Positions 5,141 through 35,993 of a stretch of DNA of 35,993 nt are shown here, piece by piece. Both the position numbers and the translations under genes were made by a program. The notes under the pieces are model-generated. The model was not told the origin of the DNA. It did not search any database and worked only from the letters and a program-made list of their open reading frames with translations. Source of the stretch: a virus (Duplodnaviria > Heunggongvirae > Uroviricota > Caudoviricetes); the IMG/VR virus record IMGVR_UViG_2585427748_000014, positions 1-35,993 of that record; one strand, 5' to 3'. Each line of letters starts with the position of its first letter. Position 1 is the stretch's first letter.

Positions 5141-5793
5141 TGAGTAATAAATATTGCCAGGCGCTGGTGGAGCTGCGAAACAAACCAGCCCATGAACTGA
5201 AGGAAGTGGGCGATCAGTGGCGCACGCCGGACAACATTTTCTGGGGAATTAACACCCTGTTTGGCCCGTTTGTTCTGGATCTGTTCACTGATGGTGATAA
5301 CGCCAAATGTGCCGCTTATTACACTGCGGAAGACAACGCGCTGGCGCATGACTGGTCTGAACGTCTTGCGGAGCTTAAAGGTGCTGCCTTTGGTAATCCC
5401 CCGTACAGCCGCGCCAGTCAGCATGAGGGGCAATACATCACCGGCATGCGTTACATCATGAAACATGCCAGTGCTATGCGTGATAAAGGCGGGCGCTATG
5501 TTTTCCTGATCAAAGCTGCCACCAGCGAAGTTTGGTGGCCGGAAGATGCAGACCATATTGCTTTTATTCGCGGGCGTATTGGTTTTGAACTGCCAGCCTG
5601 GTTTATCCCGAAGGATGAGAAGCAGGTTCCGACAGGAGCTTTCTTCGCTGGTGCTATTGCTGTTTTCGACAAGACCTGGAAGGGACCGGCAATCAGCTAC
5701 ATCGGGCGCGATGAACTTGAGGCATGTGGTGAGGCCTTTCTGGCGCAGGTTCGCCAGCAGGCAGAAAAACTGGTCAGGGAGATGGTGGCATGA
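5140..5793 (+). CDS. Phage DNA N-6-adenine methyltransferase (Dam-like)
   Basis: NPPY motif (GNPPYS); start overlaps the upstream stop (TAATG); GGGGG Shine-Dalgarno. Confidence 0.8.
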   Translation: MSNKYCQALVELRNKPAHELKEVGDQWRTPDNIFWGINTLFGPFVLDLFTDGDNAKCAAYYTAEDNALAHDWSERLAELKGAAFGNPPYSRASQHEGQYITGMRYIMKHASAMRDKGGRYVFLIKAATSEVWWPEDADHIAFIRGRIGFELPAWFIPKDEKQVPTGAFFAGAIAVFDKTWKGPAISYIGRDELEACGEAFLAQVRQQAEKLVREMVA

Positions 5794-6116
5794 CGACGTT
5801 AACTCAATGCCAGCAGCAGGTGCTGGATATGCTGATTTCTTATCAGAAAGAACGTGGCTTCCCGCCAACCAATCAGGAGGTGGCAACCATGCTGGGATAC
5901 CGTTCAGTGAATGCAGCGGTAGAACATCTTCGCGCACTGGAGAAAAAAGGCGTCATCACGATAAAGCGTGGCGTGGCCCGGGGCATCACGCTTCATACCG
6001 CGGTGAAGGACGACGACAGCGAGGCGGTCGGGATTATCCGCTCACTGCTTGTCGGTGAGGAAAACGCCAGGCTGCGTGCAGCCCACTGGTTACATGAGAG
6101 GGGCCTGAAAGTATGA
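5790..6116 (+). CDS. LexA DNA-binding-domain-like protein (no peptidase domain)
   Basis: 108 aa resembling the LexA N-terminal wHTH (QQQVLDMLISYQKERGFPPTNQEVATMLGYRSVNAAVEHLRALEKKGVI); ATGA overlap with Dam. Confidence 0.6.
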   Translation: MTTLTQCQQQVLDMLISYQKERGFPPTNQEVATMLGYRSVNAAVEHLRALEKKGVITIKRGVARGITLHTAVKDDDSEAVGIIRSLLVGEENARLRAAHWLHERGLKV

Positions 6117-6502
6117 AGCTGATCCTGCCTTTCCCGCCCAGCGTGAACACGTACTGGCGACACCCCAACAAAGGGGCGTTTGCAGGTAAGAGCCTGATAA
6201 GCGCGGCGGGGCGCAAATTCCAGAGCGCGGCGTGTGCAGCAATAGTTGAGCAGTTACGTCGTCTGCCAAAACCAACGTCGGCACCTGCTTCAGTGGAGAT
6301 CGTGTTGTTTCCTCCGGATAACCGGATCCGCGATCTGGACAACTATAACAAGGCGCTGTTTGACGCCCTGACCCACGCGGGTGTGTGGGAAGACGACAGT
6401 CAGGTGAAAAGAATGCTGGTTGAGTGGGGATCGGTTATCCCGGGAGGGAAGGTCGAGATCACTATCAGTAAGTACGAGAAAACGGCGGGTGCAGCCGCCT
6501 GA
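6113..6502 (+). CDS. rusA: RusA Holliday-junction resolvase
   Basis: 129 aa; motifs PPSVNTYWR and RDLDNYNKALFDALTHAGVWEDDSQV match the RusA family. Confidence 0.85.
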   Translation: MKLILPFPPSVNTYWRHPNKGAFAGKSLISAAGRKFQSAACAAIVEQLRRLPKPTSAPASVEIVLFPPDNRIRDLDNYNKALFDALTHAGVWEDDSQVKRMLVEWGSVIPGGKVEITISKYEKTAGAAA

Positions 6503-6521
6503 TTAAGAGGAGAAACGAAGT

Positions 6522-7331
6522 ATGAATAATCTGATGGTCATTGATGGTATTGAAGTTCGTCGTGATGCTTATGGGCGTTACAGCCTGAACGATCTGCACA
6601 GGGCAGCCGGGGGAGAACAAAAAAACCGCCCGAAATACTGGCTCTCCAATAAGCAAACCTGTGAATTGATTGAACAACTTTTCACCGAGGGTGGAATTCC
6701 GCCTCTGGAACAAAATCAACCAGTTAGCGTCATTAATGGCGGAAATAACCAGGGGACGTATGTCTGCAAAGAACTGGTGTATGCCTATGCAATGTGGATC
6801 AGCCCGTCATTCCATCTGAAGGTGATCCGTACTTTCGATATGGTAACCAGCGCACCGGAAAAATTATCCGGGCAGGCTGCTGACAAGATGCAGGCTGGAG
6901 TGATTCTGCTGGACTTTATGCGCAGGGAGTTAAACCTGTCTAACTCTTCAGTGCTTGGGGCCTGTCAGAAACTCCAGGAGGCTGTTGGCTTACCGAATCT
7001 GGCACCGCGCTATGCCATTGATGCTCCTGCTGACGCGCCTGATGGCTCAAGCCGCCCCACGCTGTCACTGAGTGCACTGCTGAAGCAGTATGGTATCCGC
7101 CTGACAGCTAATCAGGCATATCATCAGATGGTGAAGCTGGGGATCGTCGAGCAGCGCGAACGATACAGCCGTACCGCGATTAACAACATCAAAAAATTCT
7201 GGTCGCTGACGGCGAAAGGCTGCATGTTCGGCAAGAACATCACCAGTCCTGCAAATCCGCGCGAGACGCAGCCGCATTTCTTCGAATCCCGATTCCCTGA
7301 GCTGTTAAAGCTGCTCGATACCGTTCATTGA
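6522..7331 (+). CDS. KilA-N domain protein (antirepressor-like)
   Basis: GAGGAG Shine-Dalgarno; N-terminal KilA-N-like segment (VIDGIEVRRDAYGRYSLNDLHRAAG). Confidence 0.7.
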   Translation: MNNLMVIDGIEVRRDAYGRYSLNDLHRAAGGEQKNRPKYWLSNKQTCELIEQLFTEGGIPPLEQNQPVSVINGGNNQGTYVCKELVYAYAMWISPSFHLKVIRTFDMVTSAPEKLSGQAADKMQAGVILLDFMRRELNLSNSSVLGACQKLQEAVGLPNLAPRYAIDAPADAPDGSSRPTLSLSALLKQYGIRLTANQAYHQMVKLGIVEQRERYSRTAINNIKKFWSLTAKGCMFGKNITSPANPRETQPHFFESRFPELLKLLDTVH

Positions 7332-7332
7332 G

Positions 7333-8328
7333 GTGACCGTGAGAGCACTACTGACCCCTGAAATTGCCCCGCGTATGGGGATCGTATTGTTCAGGCCAGG
7401 TTCAGAGCTGATGCCCCTGTTTATGCAGGGGCGTGTCCTGCTGGAGCCTGAGCCGGAACGTTATTCATCTTTCGCCAGTGGTGCCGTTCCGGCGGCATCA
7501 CAACCGCTGGCGGATGATCCTGCCGTTCGGGCCGTGTTCCGCAATGAGGCAGTGATCCGTCGTGCTGGTGGCGTGGAATGTCTTGAAAGCTGGTTACTTC
7601 GTGAAAAAGGCTGCCAGTGGCCTCATTCCGACTGGCACAGCGAGAACATGACCACAATGCGACACGCGCCGGGCGCAATCCGTCTGTGCTGGCACTGCGA
7701 TAACCAGCTGCGCGATCAGTTCACGGAACGGCTGGAATCAATGGCAACGGATAACTGTGTCCGGTGGGTGTTATCTGTCGTGCGTCGGGATCTCGGTTTT
7801 GATGACAGTCACGTTGTGACAATGCCGGAACTGTGCTGGTGGCTGATTCGTAATGATCTGGCGGATGCCTTACCGGAAAGTGCAGCCCGTAAGGCACTGA
7901 GATTACCGAAGCCTGTTGTGCCGTCTGTTACCCGGGAAAGTGACCTTGTGCCTTCGGTTCCTGCCACCAGCATCATCCAGGATAAGGCGAAAAAGGTGCT
8001 GGCGCTGAAAGTGGATCCGGAGTCGCCGGAGTCTTTTATGTTACGCCCAAAACGTCGCCGCTGGGTTAATGAAAAGTACACGCGCTGGGTTAAGACACAG
8101 CCGTGTGCATGTTGTGGAAAGCCTGCTGATGATCCCCACCACCTGATAGGCCACGGTCAGGGGGGAATGGGTACAAAAGCGCATGACCTCTTCGTGCTGC
8201 CTTTGTGCAGAAAGCATCACGACGAGCTGCATGCGGGTACCGTGGCATTTGAAGAGATGTATGGCTCCCAGTTGGAGCTGATATTTCGTTTTATCGATCG
8301 TGCGCTGGCAATAGGCGTACTGGCGTAA
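7333..8328 (+). CDS. DUF968-family protein (Ref/HNH-like C-terminal Cys/His cluster); start uncertain (GTG 7333 or 7339, or ATG 7375)
   Basis: C-terminal CACCGK...HHLIGHGQGGMGTKAHD...CRKHHDELH motif typical of DUF968 Nin-region proteins. Confidence 0.65.
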   Translation: MTVRALLTPEIAPRMGIVLFRPGSELMPLFMQGRVLLEPEPERYSSFASGAVPAASQPLADDPAVRAVFRNEAVIRRAGGVECLESWLLREKGCQWPHSDWHSENMTTMRHAPGAIRLCWHCDNQLRDQFTERLESMATDNCVRWVLSVVRRDLGFDDSHVVTMPELCWWLIRNDLADALPESAARKALRLPKPVVPSVTRESDLVPSVPATSIIQDKAKKVLALKVDPESPESFMLRPKRRRWVNEKYTRWVKTQPCACCGKPADDPHHLIGHGQGGMGTKAHDLFVLPLCRKHHDELHAGTVAFEEMYGSQLELIFRFIDRALAIGVLA

Positions 8329-8341
8329 GTGGAGAACGAGC

Positions 8342-9094
8342 ATGAACCTTGAAGCCTTACCAAAATATTACTCCCCAAAATCTCCAAAATTGAGTGATGA
8401 CGCACCGGCGACAGGCTCGGGTGGTTTAACAATTACAGATGTGATGGCTGCGCAGGGGATGGTGCAGTCGAAAGCACCGCTTGGGTTTTCCTTATTCCTG
8501 GCAAAAGTTGGTGTTCAGGATCCTCAGTTTGCGATTGAAGGTCTGCTCAATTACGCGATGGCACTGGATAACCCGACATTGAACAAATTGAGTGAAGAAA
8601 CCCGGCTACAGATCATTCCTTACCTTGTGAATTTTGCCTTTGCTGATTATTCCAGGTCTGCGGCAAGTAAGGCTCGCTGTGAGCATTGTGCTGGTACTGG
8701 ATTTCATAATGTATTGCGCGAAGTGGTGAAACACTCCAGAAGCGGGGAGTCTGTTATCAAGGAAGAGTGGGTGAAGGAACTATGTCAGCATTGTCATGGT
8801 AAGGGAGAAGTCAGCACAGCGTGCAGAGGGTGTAAGGGTAAAGGTATTGTCCTGGATGAAAAAAGAACCCGGCTTCATGGCACGCCTGTTTATAAGATTT
8901 GTGGGCGTTGCAATGGAAACCGGTTTAGCCGTTTACCAACCACACTGGCGCGGCTTCATGTCCAGAAGCTGGTACCAGACCTGACGGATTATCAGTGGTA
9001 CAAAGGATATGCAGATGTCATTGATAAACTGGTTACAAAGTGCTGGCAGGAGGAAGCTTACGCTGAAGCACAATTGAGAAGGGTGACGAGATAA
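8342..9094 (+). CDS. Q: Late-gene antitermination protein Q
   Basis: 250 aa with CxxC zinc-binding pairs (CEHCAGTG, CQHCHGKG, CRGCKGKG, CGRC); positioned before the lysis genes. Confidence 0.8.
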   Translation: MNLEALPKYYSPKSPKLSDDAPATGSGGLTITDVMAAQGMVQSKAPLGFSLFLAKVGVQDPQFAIEGLLNYAMALDNPTLNKLSEETRLQIIPYLVNFAFADYSRSAASKARCEHCAGTGFHNVLREVVKHSRSGESVIKEEWVKELCQHCHGKGEVSTACRGCKGKGIVLDEKRTRLHGTPVYKICGRCNGNRFSRLPTTLARLHVQKLVPDLTDYQWYKGYADVIDKLVTKCWQEEAYAEAQLRRVTR

Positions 9095-31110: not shown

Positions 31111-32211
31111 ATGCATCGTATAGACACGAAAACCGCGCAGAAGGATAAGTTCGGCGCGGGTAAGAACGGTTTTACCCGTGGTAACCCCCAGACCGGCACG
31201 CCTGCCACCGATCTGGATGATGACTACTTTGACATGTTGCAGGAAGAACTCTGCAGCGTGGTGGAGGCATCCGGTGCCAGCCTGGAGAAGGGGCGGCACG
31301 ATCAGCTTCTTACCGCGCTTCGTGCGCTGCTGTTAAGCCGCAAGAATCCGTTTGGCGATATCAAATCGGATGGCACTGTGCAAACGGCTCTCGAAAACCT
31401 GGGAATGACAGACATTCTGAATGATAAACAGGATAAAAATGATAATCTGACATCATTGTCGAGCTTAACAGGAATACCGGATGGGCTGGCATTTTTTACA
31501 GGTGCTGGAACAATGGATATGACAGCGCTGACTCAAAATGGTAGGGAAATTTTAAGTAAAAAAAACGTATCGGAAACTCTACAATATTTAACACTTGGTG
31601 ATGGAACAGGAAGGCTTTTGGGGGTTCAGGTATTTGGATCATCTGGGACTTATCACAAATCACCTGGTGTAACGAAAATTATAGTGGAAGCCGTTGGCGG
31701 TGGTGGTGCCAGTGGCAATTTATCAGCAACAGCCTCAAATAACTGTGGTGTAAGTGCTGCCGGTTCCAACGGGGCATATGCTAAAGCATTTTTTTATCAG
31801 TCTATACCTGAATCCGTGCAAGTAACTATTGGAAGCGGTGGTGTAGCAGGAACAGGACCAGGAGGCTCTGGAGGTGACGGCGGGAATACAAGCTTTGGTG
31901 ATTTGCTTGTATGCCCGGGAGGAAGGGGATCAACTCAAGTTCAGCAGGTACCTCCATTTTCAGGGGGAAGTGCAACAGAAGCACCAATTCCTACAGGGCA
32001 AGGGATTCTGTTCCATTCAGTTTCACGATCAAATTTATGTGGGGCACTTGGACTTGGTGATGATCAGGCGATTGGCGTTGAAAGTATAACCACTACTATG
32101 CTTGGGACATACGGTATTGGCGGGACAGGGAAATACAATAAGGCGTCATCAGGCCCAGCGACAGGAAATAATGGAAATCAGGGATATATTCTTGTGTGGG
32201 AGTATCAGTAA
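31111..32211 (+). CDS. Tail fibre protein (conserved N-terminus, divergent Gly-rich A+T-rich C-terminal domain)
   Basis: N-terminus [47 protein letters not shown] typical of fibre N-termini; composition changes at about 31380. Confidence 0.8.
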
Positions 32212-32390
32212 TGAGCGATATTTATGCAGTCGTACAAAATGGTGTCGTTACAAATCTTGTTGTATGGGATGGTAAGTCAGAGTTTAAGCCAGAAAAAGCG
32301 GATATAGTTAAATGTGTTGGAGATGTTGGTATTGGCTGGTCATATGACGGTAAAAAATTCATCAAGCCTGAAGATAAAACCGCGCAATAG
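32211..32390 (+). CDS. Small hypothetical protein downstream of the fibre (possible fibre chaperone)
   Basis: TAATG overlap with the fibre stop; GGGAG upstream; A+T-rich like the fibre C-terminus. Confidence 0.35.
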   Translation: MSDIYAVVQNGVVTNLVVWDGKSEFKPEKADIVKCVGDVGIGWSYDGKKFIKPEDKTAQ

Positions 32391-32410
32391 CGCGGTTTTA
32401 TTTATTTTAC
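32376..32410. terminator. Bidirectional rho-independent terminator between convergent genes (ACCGCGC-AATA-GCGCGGT flanked by A- and T-runs)
   Basis: Perfect 7-bp GC stem with an A tract upstream and a T tract downstream. Confidence 0.75.
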
Positions 32411-33421
32411 TGCTAAAATTCGTTTTCTTAGCATCAGCTCTAAAGGCTCCTCAACTAATTTATAAAGTATGATTGAGACTATGGTTATTATAACAAGGAG
32501 CGCTATTAAATAGAGTGGTCCGGGGTTATGTCCAAAGATTTTAAAGCAAAATAATATAATGGGTTGATGAATTAAATAAAAAATAAATGATGATTTCCCT
32601 AATAGCTCTAGGGTTTTTGAACTGAGGATAGTATGAATGACTCCATTTCTTAGATAGATGCATGAAGTAAAGAATATTACCATGGGGAGTAAATAATATA
32701 ACGAATAACGTAGACTATTATTTATGTTGTTGCTATAATATATAGCTATTAGCAGAGGTAATAGTGAAATTAAAAACAAAAGGCTGTCGACTGTCTGCTG
32801 TCGGCTGTTTTTCCAGCAAGCGTAAATAATCATGCCGCAAATAAATTCTACCAAGCGGCTTACTGGGAATATATAATATAACCAGTGATTAAGTTCTTCT
32901 GTTTGTATAATTTTTAAAAAATATATAGTTAATAGTAGAGTTATAATTGATATTGCAGTGATTACTTTCTTTGTAATTGATGTATAAATCAACGGAATAA
33001 ACATTAAATAAAAAAACAGCTCATCAGACAAAGACCATGATACACCATTTAATGAGAAGTAGTAATCCTCCTTTGGTATCCAACTTTGCATTAATAAAAT
33101 ATTTGTTAAGGTTTTTGAAAAATCAAAGTTCTTTAAGTGAATGGTTAGTAAAATAAATGGCATGGCTAATAATAGATGCATTGGAACAATTCTTGCCAAT
33201 CTTAAAAGAATAAACTGTCTTTTACTTGTTACTTCATTTTTTAGCTTGTCTTCATATGAATATGAAAGAATGAAGCCAGATAAAATAAAGAAAAAGGAAA
33301 CGCCAATAAATCCCTGGGAAAACATTTCTTTTACAAAAACACCAAAATAGTCTGTATTTAAATGGCATAAATAAACCATTAATGCAGCTATAAATCTGAG
33401 TCCTGTTAAGTGGCGAAGCAT
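32402..33421 (-). CDS. Acyltransferase family 3 membrane protein (O-antigen acetyltransferase-like conversion gene)
   Basis: ATG at 33421 with AGAGG Shine-Dalgarno; N-terminal motif RHLTGLRFIAALMVYLCH typical of acyltransferase-3; about 10 predicted TM helices; A+T-rich. Confidence 0.8.
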   Translation of the reverse strand: MLRHLTGLRFIAALMVYLCHLNTDYFGVFVKEMFSQGFIGVSFFFILSGFILSYSYEDKLKNEVTSKRQFILLRLARIVPMHLLLAMPFILLTIHLKNFDFSKTLTNILLMQSWIPKEDYYFSLNGVSWSLSDELFFYLMFIPLIYTSITKKVITAISIITLLLTIYFLKIIQTEELNHWLYYIFPVSRLVEFICGMIIYACWKNSRQQTVDSLLFLISLLPLLIAIYYSNNINNSLRYSLYYLLPMVIFFTSCIYLRNGVIHTILSSKTLELLGKSSFIFYLIHQPIILFCFKIFGHNPGPLYLIALLVIITIVSIILYKLVEEPLELMLRKRILAVK

Positions 33422-34156
33422 CAATAACCTCTTGTTATGAAGATAAAGCAATTCAAAAGAGGCATTTTATGACTGTAGGGGATTGGTGTCTATATGAATG
33501 AGTAATCTGGTTTTTAAAATCTTCTTTAATTACAAAATAAACCTTTCTTAGGCTATAGATTTGTGGCTGTAACACTGTGTGTCCACGACATTGAGACATC
33601 CTTCCGCTTTGCTATAGATGTGGAATTCAGGATCAAGCGATATCGGACTCATCCTCAGCACCACCCGGTTAATCTGGATAACGGGAGAAGGGAAGCGCTG
33701 CCAGAAGATGATGATGGTTACAGTTCTGCACTGGCTATTCTGCACTGGCTATATTCGTGGTGATCACTTACATAATTAATGACGCCAGGAATACGGAGTT
33801 TGATGATTGCCTGGTGATGTGAGAAAAAACTCATACACACAAAGCTTTGCACTGGATTGCAAGGCTTTGTGCTATTCGATAGCACGAGTTTGAATGAAAA
33901 TCAGCCGTTATCGATTTTACGTATTTTTGTATGAGAGGATTTTTACCTCCTCCCACCGATCCTCCATAACTTTACGACACTGTCTCTAGGACTGCTATGT
34001 GCCAAGAGCGGAATTTTCTAATATTATGCTGCATTCGTTTAAGGGGAGCAGATCAGCTAACGACTCCTACGTCCTGGGGAAAGGTCACATATGCTAAACA
34101 GCAGCTCAGCAAAGAGAAGAGCGAATTTGGTAACGGGAAACCGTTATGATATGAAT

Positions 34157-34185
34157 AAGGCTCCCAATGGGAGCCTTATTTTTTG
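34157..34185. terminator. Hairpin plus T-run terminator (AAGGCTCCC-AAT-GGGAGCCTT, then TTTTTT), possibly bidirectional
   Basis: Perfect stem followed by U tract on the + strand; lies just 3' of the minus-strand small gene. Confidence 0.6.
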
Positions 34186-34201
34186 ATAGGGATGATGAAT
34201 A

Positions 34202-34375
34202 TTATCCGAGGCTTACTGGCTTTACACCTTTCTTCGGCCCGACCATATCCATGTCTTTTTCCTTCTGACCAACTTTGGCAAGTTTGTTGCCGTCGATGGA
34301 AGCCCAGAAGTCGAGAGAGCGTCTTGCACTAGCCATAGCTTTATCAGAAGTGATTTTTTTATGTTGTTTGATCAT
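34202..34375 (-). CDS. Small Lys-rich hypothetical protein (57 aa)
   Basis: AAGAGG upstream of ATG 34373-34375; below the ORF-track length cutoff; downstream of the 190-aa gene on the same strand. Confidence 0.4.
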   Translation of the reverse strand: MIKQHKKITSDKAMASARRSLDFWASIDGNKLAKVGQKEKDMDMVGPKKGVKPVSLG

Positions 34376-34465
34376 GGTTAACCTCTTTGGCTATAGACTT
34401 TACGGATAATTTTATAACAAATGCGTTCATTAAACAAACAGCCCATCGACTGCTGATTGAGATTG

Positions 34466-35038
34466 TCATTCTTCAACTGGGTCAATGCCATTCACTTTCC
34501 GTCGTATGGTGTCGAGGATGTCGTGCACATCTGCAGACATCTTACTGTGGTCATGCCATACTTGGGCAAATCCGTAGCTCCTGTAACGCGGTTGTGCATC
34601 TTCAGTAGGATCTTGAATATAAACGTCGTCAAGCTCCGCGATCTGGCAGAAGGTAGTCGCGTAAATAAGTGCGATGATCAACACATTGCCTGTTAGGTCG
34701 GTATCCTCATCTGAAATGAAGTTTTCTAACATGCAAATTGAGAATTGCTCACGGCGCCAGTCGTATTTACAAATGATAACCGCATGAAGCTGTTCGGGCT
34801 CATCACGGTCGATCAGCTTTAACGTTATATCCAGTATTCCATCTACAGCGTCACCGCGATAGGTCTGCATCGCCCATCGCCAGTCCAAGTGGCTTTGTAA
34901 ACTTGCATCTTCAAGCTGGCGTCTCTCTTCATCGCTCAAAACGCCTACAGAGATATTAGTCCATCCAAGTGATTCAATAGCTTTTTGTGTTGTTGCTAGA
35001 CATTGATCATGTATTTGCTGAGTAGATAGGAAGCTCAC
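34466..35038 (-). CDS. Hypothetical acidic protein (190 aa), GTG start, att-proximal cargo
   Basis: AAGGA 9 nt upstream of GTG; no recognisable family. Confidence 0.45.
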   Translation of the reverse strand: MSFLSTQQIHDQCLATTQKAIESLGWTNISVGVLSDEERRQLEDASLQSHLDWRWAMQTYRGDAVDGILDITLKLIDRDEPEQLHAVIICKYDWRREQFSICMLENFISDEDTDLTGNVLIIALIYATTFCQIAELDDVYIQDPTEDAQPRYRSYGFAQVWHDHSKMSADVHDILDTIRRKVNGIDPVEE

Positions 35039-35410
35039 TTCATGTCATCCTTTATCTTTTGTCCCACAGCAATTATATCGTTCAAGTGTGAAAGTAGGCG
35101 AGTTATTCTGACCTACGCCTCTCGCTATACGTGGTTTTAGAGGGCTGACATGACTGTTCCCAGCTGATTGCCACACGGCATTGTTCGCAAGATTTATGTC
35201 GACTCAATTATGAACGTCTGCTGATCGCTCATAACAGGCATTCACTACATTTATCTTCATTGGCTATGCAAGTCGTAATACAAGTTGGGACAAAACTGAG
35301 ACACATAAGGCCTCACAATGGCTTGCAAGGCTTTACATGTTTTGATGTGATGGGACGTGTGAGCGCAGTGTTGATGGGGTAATGCTTTGAATTAGAAACG
35401 GATTCTTATA

Positions 35411-35456
35411 ATTCGTAATGCGAAGGTCGTAGGTTCGACTCCTATTATCGGCACCA
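35411..35456 (+). other. attR core: 3' fragment of a tRNA-Thr gene (anticodon loop through CCA), not a complete tRNA
   Basis: ATTCGTAATGCGAAGGTCGTAGGTTCGACTCCTATTATCGGCACCA contains a T-arm (GGTTCGACTCC), acceptor 3' strand and CCA; the 5' half of the tRNA is absent. Confidence 0.75.
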
Positions 35457-35582
35457 TTAAAATCAAAGAGTTACCCCATATTTAAATACACCACGTTTCC
35501 TCCTGTGCCGTATTTGTGCCATTGTAACCTTGGCAATTCATCAAAATACTGTTCTGACATCAGGCAGTGCAGGTGCAGACAT

Positions 35583-35993
35583 TTAAGCCAATTGCTGCCG
35601 CCATTCTTTGACGTAGTCAATCAGGGCGCGGAGCTTTGGTGCAATATTGCGACGCTGTGGGAAATACAGATAGAAGCCCGGAAATTGTGGAAGAAAGTCA
35701 TCAAGCAGCGATACAAGCTTACCGCTTTCAATATATGGCCTGAAAGTTTCCTGAGTGGCAATTGTTATTCCTCCGCCGGCAAGAGCCAGCCTCAACATCA
35801 GACGCAGATCATTAGTCGTAATCTGCGGTTCAATCGCAAGGTCGAAAGTTCTCCCGTTTTCTTCAAATGGCCAGCGATAAGGCGCAACCTCCGGGGACTG
35901 ACGCCAGCCGATACACTTATGGGTATTTCCCCCGGAGGCGAGAAAGCGCTCTCCACGCCCGGCCGCAAGGATCAGGACGACGGGGGCAGGCAT
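35583..35993 (-). CDS. LysR-family transcriptional regulator, C-terminal substrate-binding part (host flank; N-terminus beyond the window edge)
   Basis: C-terminal pattern ...LRLALAGGGITIA...FPGFYLYFPQRR... typical of LysR effector domains. Confidence 0.65.
   Translation of the reverse strand: MPAPVVLILAAGRGERFLASGGNTHKCIGWRQSPEVAPYRWPFEENGRTFDLAIEPQITTNDLRLMLRLALAGGGITIATQETFRPYIESGKLVSLLDDFLPQFPGFYLYFPQRRNIAPKLRALIDYVKEWRQQLA

Follow-up and report, generated by a model that had tools for sequence, protein, structure and literature searches.

Organization of the locus

The window analysed here, a whole stretch of 35,993 nucleotides, contains an SfII-like prophage of E. coli at thrW, and near one end of it lie two co-oriented minus-strand genes, one for a 190-aa acidic protein and one for a 57-aa Lys-rich protein. 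Both ORFs had been called in a first-pass annotation, and both were found where it had placed them, the larger with its GTG start. The features referred to below are:

32402-33451, minus strand: gene for an Acyl_transf_3 O-acetyltransferase (O-antigen acyltransferase), neighbour of the pair
33875-34012, unstranded: spacer conserved at the ends of thrW prophages, between two cargo positions that vary
33994-35244, minus strand: transferable module, 1251 bp, 96.9% identical by blastn to a chromosomal islet of Klebsiella that is not part of a prophage
34154-34180, unstranded: stem-loop terminator, AUAAGGCUCCCA-UUG-UGGGAGCCUUAU, with a 12-bp stem (-18.9 kcal/mol, z -4.6)
34202-34375, minus strand: gene for the 57-aa Lys-rich partner (RefSeq hypothetical protein WP_165453616.1)
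34376-34465, minus strand: spacer between the two genes, 90 nt, with a conserved promoter-like element
34409-34414, minus strand: -10-like TAAAAT, with a 17-nt gap to the -35-like TTGTTT, predicted from conservation
34432-34437, minus strand: -35-like TTGTTT, from the alignment of 21 spacers, predicted from conservation
34466-35038, minus strand: gene for the 190-aa acidic protein with a predicted GNAT fold, GTG start (RefSeq hypothetical protein WP_024244021.1)
35072-35077, minus strand: perfect TATAAT hexamer 34 nt 5' of the GTG start, lacking a good -35; a candidate read from the sequence
35154-35244, minus strand: conserved upstream element of ~85-90 bp, at a distance of 116-206 bp from the start codon of the GNAT gene
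35247-35458, unstranded: phage-side attR arm plus att core, a flank conserved in other thrW prophages
35411-35458, unstranded: att core, 48 nt, matching the 3' part of tRNA-Thr thrW at 48/48 positions

The pair lies between a lysogenic conversion gene and attR, as the first-pass annotation had proposed, with the O-acetyltransferase gene on one side and the att core on the other; ~370 bp of the interval that had been assigned to the pair, up to 35400, is non-coding DNA 5' of the 190-aa gene. In strain KSC1031 the opposite end of the prophage has an intact thrW beside the integrase, and in strain E41 identity to the window stops at 35462, past the core, where an integrase-led element (int, HTH regulator) begins.

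The suggestion that this end of the prophage is a hotspot for cargo is borne out by comparison with related elements. The cassette (~34013-35246) is a discrete unit between two flanks, 33875-34012 and 35247-35458, that are common to loci L053 and L054; the first of these flanks is 85-86% identical to both and 77% identical to a third locus, L046. Other cargo occupies this slot in sister thrW prophages, either a RelA/SpoT-like gene or flxA with a 4-fold beta-flower gene, and their adjacent cargo position carries validated anti-phage defence genes: PD-T4-3 (a PADLOC system; E 2e-140) or a type IV restriction enzyme of full length. In addition, the GC content is 44% in the cassette versus 53-58% in the structural genes, and the cassette is on the minus strand while the tail genes are on the plus strand. 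The cassette thus combines the properties of a moron or hotspot cargo: conserved flanks, replaced cargo, its own terminator, deviant GC and opposite orientation.

Regulatory elements

The GTG start of the 190-aa ORF directly follows an in-frame TGA, with AAGGA as its Shine-Dalgarno sequence; the aligned start position in relatives is ATG or GTG, and GTG in most. The TATAAT hexamer ahead of the gene is kept in the close group only. Database versions of the protein that are 134 aa long are as long as translation from the ATG of Met57 would make them (190 - 56 = 134), a match in length only, which suggests that they were annotated from this ATG instead of the GTG rather than being truncated.

The two genes had been described as an operon ending at a hairpin plus T-run, and both descriptions hold in part. 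The genes are indeed co-oriented on the minus strand, but a single transcription unit is uncertain, given the conserved promoter-like -35/-10 pair in the spacer ahead of the small gene. This predicted pair is conserved across genera and was unflagged in a consensus promoter scan. The spacer also conserves the motif CTGTTTGTT(A/T)AATGAAC, which forms a dyad in several relatives and in some lineages overlaps the -35-like site; in an inverted-repeat scan the dyad was missing from the window's own lineage, and the spacer RNA folds no better than its shuffles (z -0.28). The hairpin is real by its folding score, but its clean T6 run is on the plus strand; in gene sense there is A6 and a weaker U tail, only UUAUUCAUAU. 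A AAGGCTCC...GGAGCCTT stem after the 57-aa gene is kept in most relatives, with U-rich tails there, and the terminator looks bidirectional from its sequence. A consensus scan listed this hairpin on neither strand, and Rfam gave just a sub-threshold chance match, on the terminator.

In other hotspots of E. coli, the 85-bp element that lies upstream of the pair precedes unrelated cargo genes, none of which matches Pfam or PADLOC, and in a P2-like prophage it is located between the tail-fibre-assembly and tail-sheath genes. It has no match in the phage collection or in Rfam. SOS control was considered and rejected, as none of 21 loci has a LexA box (CTGT-N8-ACAG) in the 300 nt upstream.

Distribution and selection

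The module is not specific to prophages and occurs on plasmids, phage-plasmids and chromosomal islets too. In Klebsiella a 19-bp direct repeat, TCCGCTCCTGGCACAGAGC, lies on either side of the islet, and one copy of it remains in the window (33994-34012). Elsewhere the pair adjoins a Cre-like recombinase on P1/P7-like phage-plasmids, the integrase in mEp460, a tRNA att site in locus L041 and a BrxR + E2/ThiF/JAB system in Pectobacterium; it is also present on lambdoid phages, on Enterobacter and Leclercia plasmids, in an ICE-like region, and in plasmid regions near umuDC, SRAP, RdgC and Dam. Judging by these genomic contexts, the pair is a self-contained, horizontally mobile cassette that is exchanged among prophages, phage-plasmids, plasmids and chromosomal islets. 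Three genera, Kluyvera, Pantoea and Ewingella, each have the pair at one fixed chromosomal site, and the Pantoea site is stable and lies among stress genes (Mn catalase, YciE/F-like, KGG, MsrA, umuC). Such fixed sites also fit an ordinary physiological role. The family range so far is Enterobacterales and Vibrio only, and the family is small and carries no annotation in the libraries searched.

A separate observation is that the pair recurs near umuD, umuC or SRAP genes, an association that may reflect shared cargo of mobile elements.

Both genes are strongly conserved. In distant pairs dN/dS is 0.08-0.26 for the two genes and 0.08-0.16 for the 57-aa gene, which differs from the Klebsiella copy by three synonymous and no non-synonymous changes. 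The ORF lengths are held over 48-97% identity, full-length conservation extends over more than 60 clusters, and the exact proteins of the pair are present on 632 and 995 contigs. By these measures of sequence conservation, both ORFs are real, translated genes under purifying selection.

Predicted fold and family membership

Neither protein had been assigned to a family in the first-pass annotation, and our searches of Pfam, NCBIfam, PADLOC and PDB sequences likewise returned no named family; the sole profile match of the pair is PHROG 4350, annotated as 'unknown function'. Neither protein matches any model of PADLOC-DB v2 at E <= 1, and single-sequence and profile searches of PDB sequences gave nothing for either. 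The 190-aa protein and ten remote homologues have no Pfam or NCBIfam match at E <= 1, GNAT profiles (Acetyltransf_1 and related) included, Pfam domains are absent from all 82 profile matches of the 190-aa family, and the protein matches no resistance or SpeG-type profile. The 57-aa protein has no match in Pfam, NCBIfam or PDB, nor to any HTH family. A profile was searched exhaustively against 1.8 billion representatives, and a second profile search made use of remote members; all relatives recovered were unannotated and lacked a Pfam domain. The 190-aa family is very narrow, with 28 representative clusters among these 1.8 billion proteins. Homology to housekeeping phage proteins was not found in these searches, and a literature search found nothing on this family of pairs.

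The GNAT fold of the 190-aa protein is visible by structure prediction only. The model is a mixed alpha/beta fold (b1-a1-a2-b2-b3-b4-a3-b5-a4-b6-b7), for which the best Foldseek matches in the PDB are the GNAT toxins of GNAT/DUF1778 toxin-antitoxin (TA) systems of type II; SpeG and aminoglycoside acetyltransferases are also among the structural matches. Across 29 sequences, down to 18% identity, four residues (Y152, F157, W53 and L51) never vary and two more (E105 and G156) hardly do. Y152 sits in the motif Y-x-x-x-G-F and E105 at the end of strand 4, and we infer from motif position, rather than from superposition, that they may be the equivalents of the catalytic GNAT residues, a Tyr in helix 4 and a Glu near strands 4/5. 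The acetyl-CoA motif A (Q/R-x-x-G-x-G/A, strand 4/helix 3), where the pyrophosphate is bound through backbone amides, is degenerate and reads D-L-T-G-N-V. Within the close family this region has an invariant L115 and G117, and remote members have K, H, D or R for the Gly. Because motif A is degenerate and the Gly is not kept in the wider family, acetyl-CoA binding by the 190-aa protein is only putative.

Pairing and charge co-variation

The two proteins are oppositely charged. The 190-aa protein has a net charge of -19 and a pI of 4.46, and nearly all of its relatives are acidic too. The 57-aa protein, in contrast, contains 13 K+R among its 57 residues, with a pI of 10.1 and a net charge of +6.6; its AF2 model (pLDDT 68) is a helical hairpin (residues 11-26 and 29-41) with a basic tail and no N-terminal strand. 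Homologues of the small protein form 31 clusters, nearly all 55-57 aa in length, and its conservation is at least that of the enzyme, which is unusual for antitoxins.

In 21/21 full-length genome loci the GNAT gene is followed, 62-119 nt downstream, by the small gene, which was never found alone; in both look-ups that started from the small gene, the 190-aa gene was upstream. Every remote homologue examined, in distant Enterobacterales and phage, is followed by an ORF of 52-61 aa, and some of these ORFs share FW..D or GPKK motifs. When all flanking ORFs in 26 loci were clustered, no constant third gene emerged.

The two net charges are negatively correlated across 31 distinct pairs (Spearman -0.63, p 1e-4, uncorrected for phylogeny). 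In four separate deep lineages a near-neutral enzyme goes with a non-basic partner; the remote partners reach net charges of -7.5 (L041) and -3.4 (L047), and most of their lysines are missing. This anticorrelation suggests that the enzyme and its small partner touch directly.

Proposed function and alternatives

The reading that we favour, while regarding it as somewhat short of probable, is that the pair is a lysogen-expressed enzyme-partner module of a TA-like or defence-like kind. The enzyme and its partner would form an electrostatically matched complex, in which the small basic helical protein would fill an acidic acceptor groove and keep the acyltransferase silent. The partner would be made in excess from its own promoter, as an antitoxin is, in a layout like that of the toxin-first mqsRA or higBA. 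Loss or titration of the partner, as when a plasmid or prophage is lost or another phage infects, would free the enzyme, which might then acylate an amine, probably that of a protein lysine or N-terminus, on some cellular or viral target of positive charge, so that growth or phage development would stop. In a lysogen the pair would thus serve as an addiction module or as an abortive-infection/exclusion module. Counting against a TA-like or defence-like role are the blank PADLOC result, the degenerate motif A, the high conservation of the small protein, the fixed chromosomal sites, the differences from known GNAT toxins described below, the missing phylogenetic correction of the charge correlation and the lack of the spacer dyad in the window's own lineage. 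More doubtful is the further proposal that this pair founds a new kind of two-component system, in which a cryptic acidic GNAT and a ~57-aa basic protein would form a charge-matched complex. The system would be either a toxin-first GNAT TA or abortive-infection module, with an antitoxin of an entirely new type and a non-tRNA (protein) target, or a type VII-like one whose enzyme neutralises the small partner by acetylation; in both cases its prophage, phage-plasmid or plasmid carriers would gain addiction or anti-phage protection.

The roles of the two proteins might also be reversed. An acidic 'antitoxin' encoded upstream of a basic 'toxin' is the canonical TA gene order, and the 57-aa Lys-rich protein could be an effector, which may bind nucleic acid, the ribosome or a protein, that the acidic GNAT neutralises by acetylation of lysine or the N-terminus, in the manner of a type VII-like enzyme-substrate pair or a regulatory switch. 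We consider this unlikely, as the partner is non-basic in several remote lineages (L041 and L047 among them), a separate promoter boosting the 'toxin' would be odd, and the small protein, modelled at medium confidence, resembles no known toxin or DNA-binding fold.

Acidic GNATs commonly act on cationic small molecules, and a resistance or detoxification function acquired by lysogenic conversion is a slightly weaker candidate still. The GNAT would acetylate a polyamine, an aminoglycoside-like antibiotic, a peptide or a microcin, with the small protein as an accessory or regulator. The SpeG and aminoglycoside acetyltransferases among the structural matches, the adjoining O-antigen acyltransferase (another lysogenic-conversion enzyme) and the stable Pantoea position among stress genes are consistent with such a function. 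However, it leaves an obligate small partner of co-varying charge unexplained, and the narrowness of the family and the blank resistance and SpeG-type profiles also argue against it.

An anti-defence or host-takeover factor, in which the GNAT would acetylate a host or rival immune protein and the small gene would encode an Aca-like repressor, appears improbable. In its favour are the strongly acidic protein, the carriage on mobile elements (phage-plasmids, an ICE-like region and plasmid regions near umuDC, SRAP, RdgC and Dam) and the conserved, partly dyad-symmetric promoter region ahead of the small downstream gene; but the cassette faces against the late operon at the att end, with its own terminator, as lysogen-expressed morons do, it is fixed outside any mobile element in the chromosomes of several genera, and the small protein has only two predicted helices and no HTH family match. 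Finally, that the ORFs are decaying, non-functional remnants beside the att site, as the first-pass annotation had allowed, is extremely improbable and is rejected as far as sequence analysis can do so: the adjoining S24 (UmuD-like) pseudogene indicates that debris builds up in the slot, and the GTG start and weak U tail of the window's copy could suggest decay, but the GTG is common to most relatives, and dN/dS far below 1 in both reading frames, full-length conservation across clusters and exact copies on many contigs all speak against it.

Returning to the favoured reading, if the pair is a working TA or defence module, the GNAT-toxin theme would be extended by an enzyme that is acidic, a partner with a new fold and a new order of the genes, and probably by a new non-tRNA target. 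A working module would also provide a validated type of cargo for a newly delineated hotspot, the two att-end cargo positions in SfII-like thrW prophages. The pair is found on hundreds of contigs, and on clinically relevant Klebsiella and Enterobacter replicons. Even if the enzyme is an ordinary acetyltransferase, PHROG 4350 gains a usable structural annotation.

Comparison with known systems

The GNAT/DUF1778 TA systems (TacAT, AtaRT, KacAT, ItaRT, GmvAT) resemble the pair in being carried on mobile elements as two small genes, of which the larger encodes a GNAT-fold product, and the Tyr of Y-x-x-x-G-F lies where the catalytic Tyr of the toxins sits, as inferred from the motif and without superposition. 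Known GNAT toxins, however, are basic and bind tRNA, and the gene for their DUF1778/RHH antitoxin lies upstream and abuts the toxin gene, whereas the enzyme described here is acidic and outside their sequence profiles, the gene order is reversed, with the small gene downstream across a spacer, and the partner is a basic two-helix protein without RHH/DUF1778. Membership of the TacAT type was therefore rejected on the acidic enzyme, the reversed order and the lack of DUF1778.

Protein N-terminal and lysine acetyltransferases (NatD/Naa40, RimI, RimJ; PA3270, BH2621) are only 10-11% identical to the 190-aa protein, which differs from them in lacking a Pfam GNAT match, in its degenerate motif A, in having one more helix at the N-terminus and an acidic SDEDTD insert located between strand 4 and helix 3, and in its dedicated small partner gene. 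AcrVA5 is a GNAT that inactivates Cas12a by lysine acetylation, and an anti-CRISPR acetyltransferase of this type with an Aca regulator would likewise be a GNAT enzyme on a mobile element followed by a small gene; the small protein here has two predicted helices and no HTH profile match, and the module is fixed in several chromosomes.

Prophages P2 and P4 reportedly carry defence hotspots. The phage carrying the pair is instead SfII-like and located at thrW, and the pair matches no PADLOC model, but the slot is similar in its variable cargo, conserved phage flanks and proximity to tail-fibre genes and att. Type II TA loci in which the toxin gene comes first include mqsRA, higBA, hicAB and rnlAB. 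Although the pair has no homology to them, it shares their layout, with the larger enzyme gene first, the small partner gene second and the latter possibly under a promoter of its own, predicted here from conservation.

The gene pair and its prophage setting

From sequence comparison and structure modelling, the two genes at the att-proximal end of this prophage are an unannotated, conserved and mobile module that encodes a cryptic GNAT enzyme. This supports and sharpens the first-pass annotation, which had described an operon of unrecognised function in a presumed cargo hotspot. The main features are as follows:

32402-33451, minus strand: O-antigen acetyltransferase gene (Acyl_transf_3)
34154-34180: hairpin after the 57-residue gene (12-bp stem, -18.9 kcal/mol, z -4.6)
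34202-34375, minus strand: 57-residue ORF
34409-34414: -10-like TAAAAT in the spacer ahead of the 57-residue gene
34432-34437: -35-like TTGTTT in the same spacer
34466-35038, minus strand: 190-residue ORF, GTG start
35072-35077: perfect TATAAT upstream of the enzyme gene, without a good -35
35154-35244: conserved ~85-bp element upstream of the GNAT gene, GCTATGAGCGATCAGCAGACGTTCGTAATTGAGTCGACATAAATCTTGC...CTGGGAACAG

Both ORFs were found exactly as first claimed, and so were their properties: the 190-residue protein (WP_024244021.1) is acidic (pI 4.46, net charge -19) and the 57-residue protein (WP_165453616.1) is lysine-rich and basic (pI 10.1, 13 of 57 residues K or R). Two E. coli strains from pigs, KSC1031 and E41, carry DNA with 99.8% identity to the window, and in both RefSeq labels the proteins hypothetical. 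The GTG is preceded by an in-frame TGA and by a Shine-Dalgarno sequence (AAGGA); at the aligned codon, relatives have either GTG or ATG as their start. The dN/dS ratio is 0.08-0.26 for both genes in distant pairs, indicating purifying selection, and the small gene shows three synonymous and no non-synonymous differences between the window and Klebsiella. By these measures both ORFs are translated genes, neither chance ORFs nor debris; the purifying selection on both essentially excludes the explanation that they are untranslated, decayed remnants.

Window positions 10000-33500 match the Shigella serotype-converting myoviruses SfII, SfI and SfIV at 97-98% over the structural genes. In KSC1031 the prophage begins after proA with an intact tRNA-Thr gene (thrW) and an integrase, and the last 48 nt of thrW are repeated exactly at window 35411-35458, which is therefore attR. 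Given this location and the identity of the acyltransferase, the original placement of the pair between the conversion gene and attR is correct. In E41, identity to the window stops at 35462, a few bases past the att core, and an integrase-led element (integrase and HTH regulator; 5223-8067 of the E41 locus L002) directly follows the thrW-derived core, which shows that the thrW att site is reused in tandem. Further into the prophage, a 366-residue ORF (31111-32211, plus strand) has an StfP-like amino terminus and a carboxy-terminal half rich in Gly, Ser and Ala; the RefSeq annotation, a truncated stfP pseudogene, stops after ~100 codons. The ORF may encode a chimeric or novel tail-fibre tip.

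A predicted GNAT enzyme and its small partner

The first pass recognised no family for either protein and proposed HMM and structure-based searches. Neither protein has a match in Pfam, NCBIfam, PADLOC or PDB sequences, and the sole profile match is to PHROG 4350 ('unknown function', 3e-14). The 190-residue family is narrow, with 68 clusters at 90% identity, all of ~190 residues and in Enterobacterales; among 1.8 billion proteins it accounts for only 28 representative clusters, none with a Pfam domain, and remote members occur in Vibrio and phage mEp460. The AlphaFold2 model is confident (pLDDT 90, pTM 0.88, 32-sequence alignment), and its order of strands and helices is that of the GNAT acyltransferase fold with an added amino-terminal helix. 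Across 29 members, down to 18% identity, L51, W53, Y152 and F157 are invariant and E105, L115 and G156 nearly so. Y152 falls in a Y-x-x-x-G-F motif, the site of the catalytic tyrosine in many GNATs, and E105 ends strand 4; from motif position we infer that both are equivalent to GNAT catalytic residues. At the acetyl-CoA motif A the sequence, D-L-T-G-N-V, is degenerate, and remote members do not keep the glycine; cofactor use by the predicted enzyme is therefore no more than likely.

For the 57-residue protein, a medium-confidence model (pLDDT 68) shows residues 11-26 and 29-41 forming a helical hairpin, and a tail that is basic and disordered. The invariant core of this protein comprises L21, F23, W24, D28, G29, K31, L32, A33, V35, E39, K40, M42, D43, G46, P47 and K49. 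Retrieval with the large protein gave 21 full-length genome loci, and in every one the small gene lies 62-119 nt downstream of the large one; look-ups from small-protein clusters place the 190-residue gene 90 nt upstream in both cases. Remote enzyme relatives also have a 52-61-residue ORF just downstream, some with FW..D or GPKK motifs in common, whether beside a tRNA att site (P0101), in an ICE-like region (P0102), after lambdoid tail-fibre genes (P0110) or after bcsG (P0113); in mEp460, gp23/gp24 adjoin the integrase. No other gene is constant among the clustered neighbours. The GNAT-fold enzyme and its obligate small partner are thus one unit. Their net charges anticorrelate across 31 distinct pairs (Spearman -0.63, Pearson -0.72, statistics that ignore phylogeny), which argues for direct electrostatic contact, and a near-neutral enzyme goes with a neutral or acidic partner in four separate deep lineages.

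Mobility and the cargo hotspot

The pair adjoins a Cre-like recombinase in P1/P7-like phage-plasmids, lies near umuDC, SRAP, RdgC and Dam in plasmids of Enterobacter, Leclercia and Chimaeribacter, and adjoins BrxR and an E2/ThiF/JAB system in Pectobacterium. Fixed chromosomal sites are occupied in Kluyvera (after pspF) and Pantoea (adjoining umuC). Comparison of these neighborhoods shows a pair that evidently moves between replicons as a unit. Despite the umuC, umuDC and SRAP neighbours, the search for a LexA box upstream of the pair was negative at every locus examined.

Over 1251 bp (window 33994-35244) the DNA is 96.9% identical to an islet in the Klebsiella chromosome, located between genes for a glutamine amidotransferase and an AraC-type regulator and without phage genes in its vicinity. 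There the islet is bracketed by direct copies of a 19-bp sequence, TCCGCTCCTGGCACAGAGC, which is itself a small hairpin (7759-7777 and 9027-9045 of locus L003). The window has a single copy, at 33994-34012 where the module ends, a pattern that suggests site-specific or microhomology-mediated insertion. Among 5426 complete E. coli genomes, just 2 carry the module. Its flanks, 33875-34012 and 35247-35993, are shared with other thrW prophages of E. coli, but the cargo between them differs: a RelA/SpoT-like 'GTP pyrophosphokinase' in one sister (L053) and flxA with a 4-fold beta-flower protein in another (L054). The proposed att-proximal hotspot is borne out by this comparison. In the window and these sisters, the att end has two adjacent variable positions separated by a ~138-bp conserved spacer (33875-34012). 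The first (32402-33822) is occupied in the window by the O-antigen acyltransferase gene together with an S24 pseudogene; its occupant in sister prophages is either PD-T4-3 (PADLOC E 2e-140) or a type IV methyl-directed restriction enzyme of full length. The pair behaves as a cassette, at a hotspot that in other prophages carries defence genes.

The S24 (UmuD/LexA-like) peptidase remnant (~33611-33822, plus strand), between the acyltransferase gene and the module, is frameshifted and truncated at its amino terminus. GC content, 53-58% in the structural genes, falls to 35-36% over 32000-34000 (acyltransferase and S24 remnant); the GNAT module has 44%. The two cargo positions therefore seem to be of different foreign origin. 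At the module's downstream end, 33999-34057 has a ~91% match in L045, where the matching stretch is intergenic, with a DJ-1/PfpI gene on one side and the yhhC peptide-modification cluster on the other. By their best match, about 45 E. coli genomes fall in the 90-95% identity band, and in most of those listed the match covers this segment, which may be a small repeated or terminator-bearing sequence.

Expression signals

The spacer between the genes (90 nt, conserved in length) carries the conserved motif CTGTTTGTT(A/T)AATGAAC followed 17 nt on by TAnAAT. The motif forms a dyad in several genera (TTTGTT-N5-AACAAA or TGTTTG-N5-CAAACA) and none in the window's own lineage. A simple promoter scan did not flag this element; it is conservation that suggests a promoter of its own for the small gene. 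RNA folding of the spacer is not significant, and an Rfam search of the region gave no match. Of the hairpin and T-run said to end the genes, the hairpin stands; the clean T-run lies on the plus strand, and the gene-sense tail is U-poor in the window copy. In most relatives this stem (AAGGCTCC/GGAGCCTT) recurs 3' of the small gene, there with a U-rich tail.

Upstream of the module, the phage-side att arm has two overlapping terminator-like hairpins on the minus strand (35297-35331), which could shield the module from read-through out of the bacterial flank. The ~85-bp element, which matches nothing in Rfam or the phage collection, recurs at two places (L044 2501-2578 and L046 2501-2601), in each case ~85 nt ahead of an unrelated cargo gene annotated as hypothetical. 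One copy separates the tail-fibre-assembly and tail-sheath genes of a P2-like prophage; the other adjoins an integrase gene and one for a retron-type reverse transcriptase. The element might serve these loci as a common promoter or regulatory piece, or be a recombination-prone cassette border.

Possible function and relation to known systems

Our preferred, though tentative, reading is that the module resembles a toxin-first toxin-antitoxin or abortive-infection pair. The two proteins would bind each other, and the small one, made from its own promoter, would hold the acyltransferase off a positively charged, probably protein, target. An arrangement like type VII, in which the enzyme acetylates its own partner, is unlikely; a conversion gene for small-molecule detoxification is somewhat less probable again, and an AcrVA5-like anti-defence enzyme with an Aca-like regulator is improbable. 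Our literature search found no paper that mentions the family. The module as a whole is a solid candidate for a new form of toxin-antitoxin or defence system built on a GNAT enzyme. Membership in the TacAT/AtaRT/KacAT family was considered and rejected: unlike in those systems, the partner is without RHH/DUF1778, the enzyme is acidic, and the genes are in reversed order and spaced apart.
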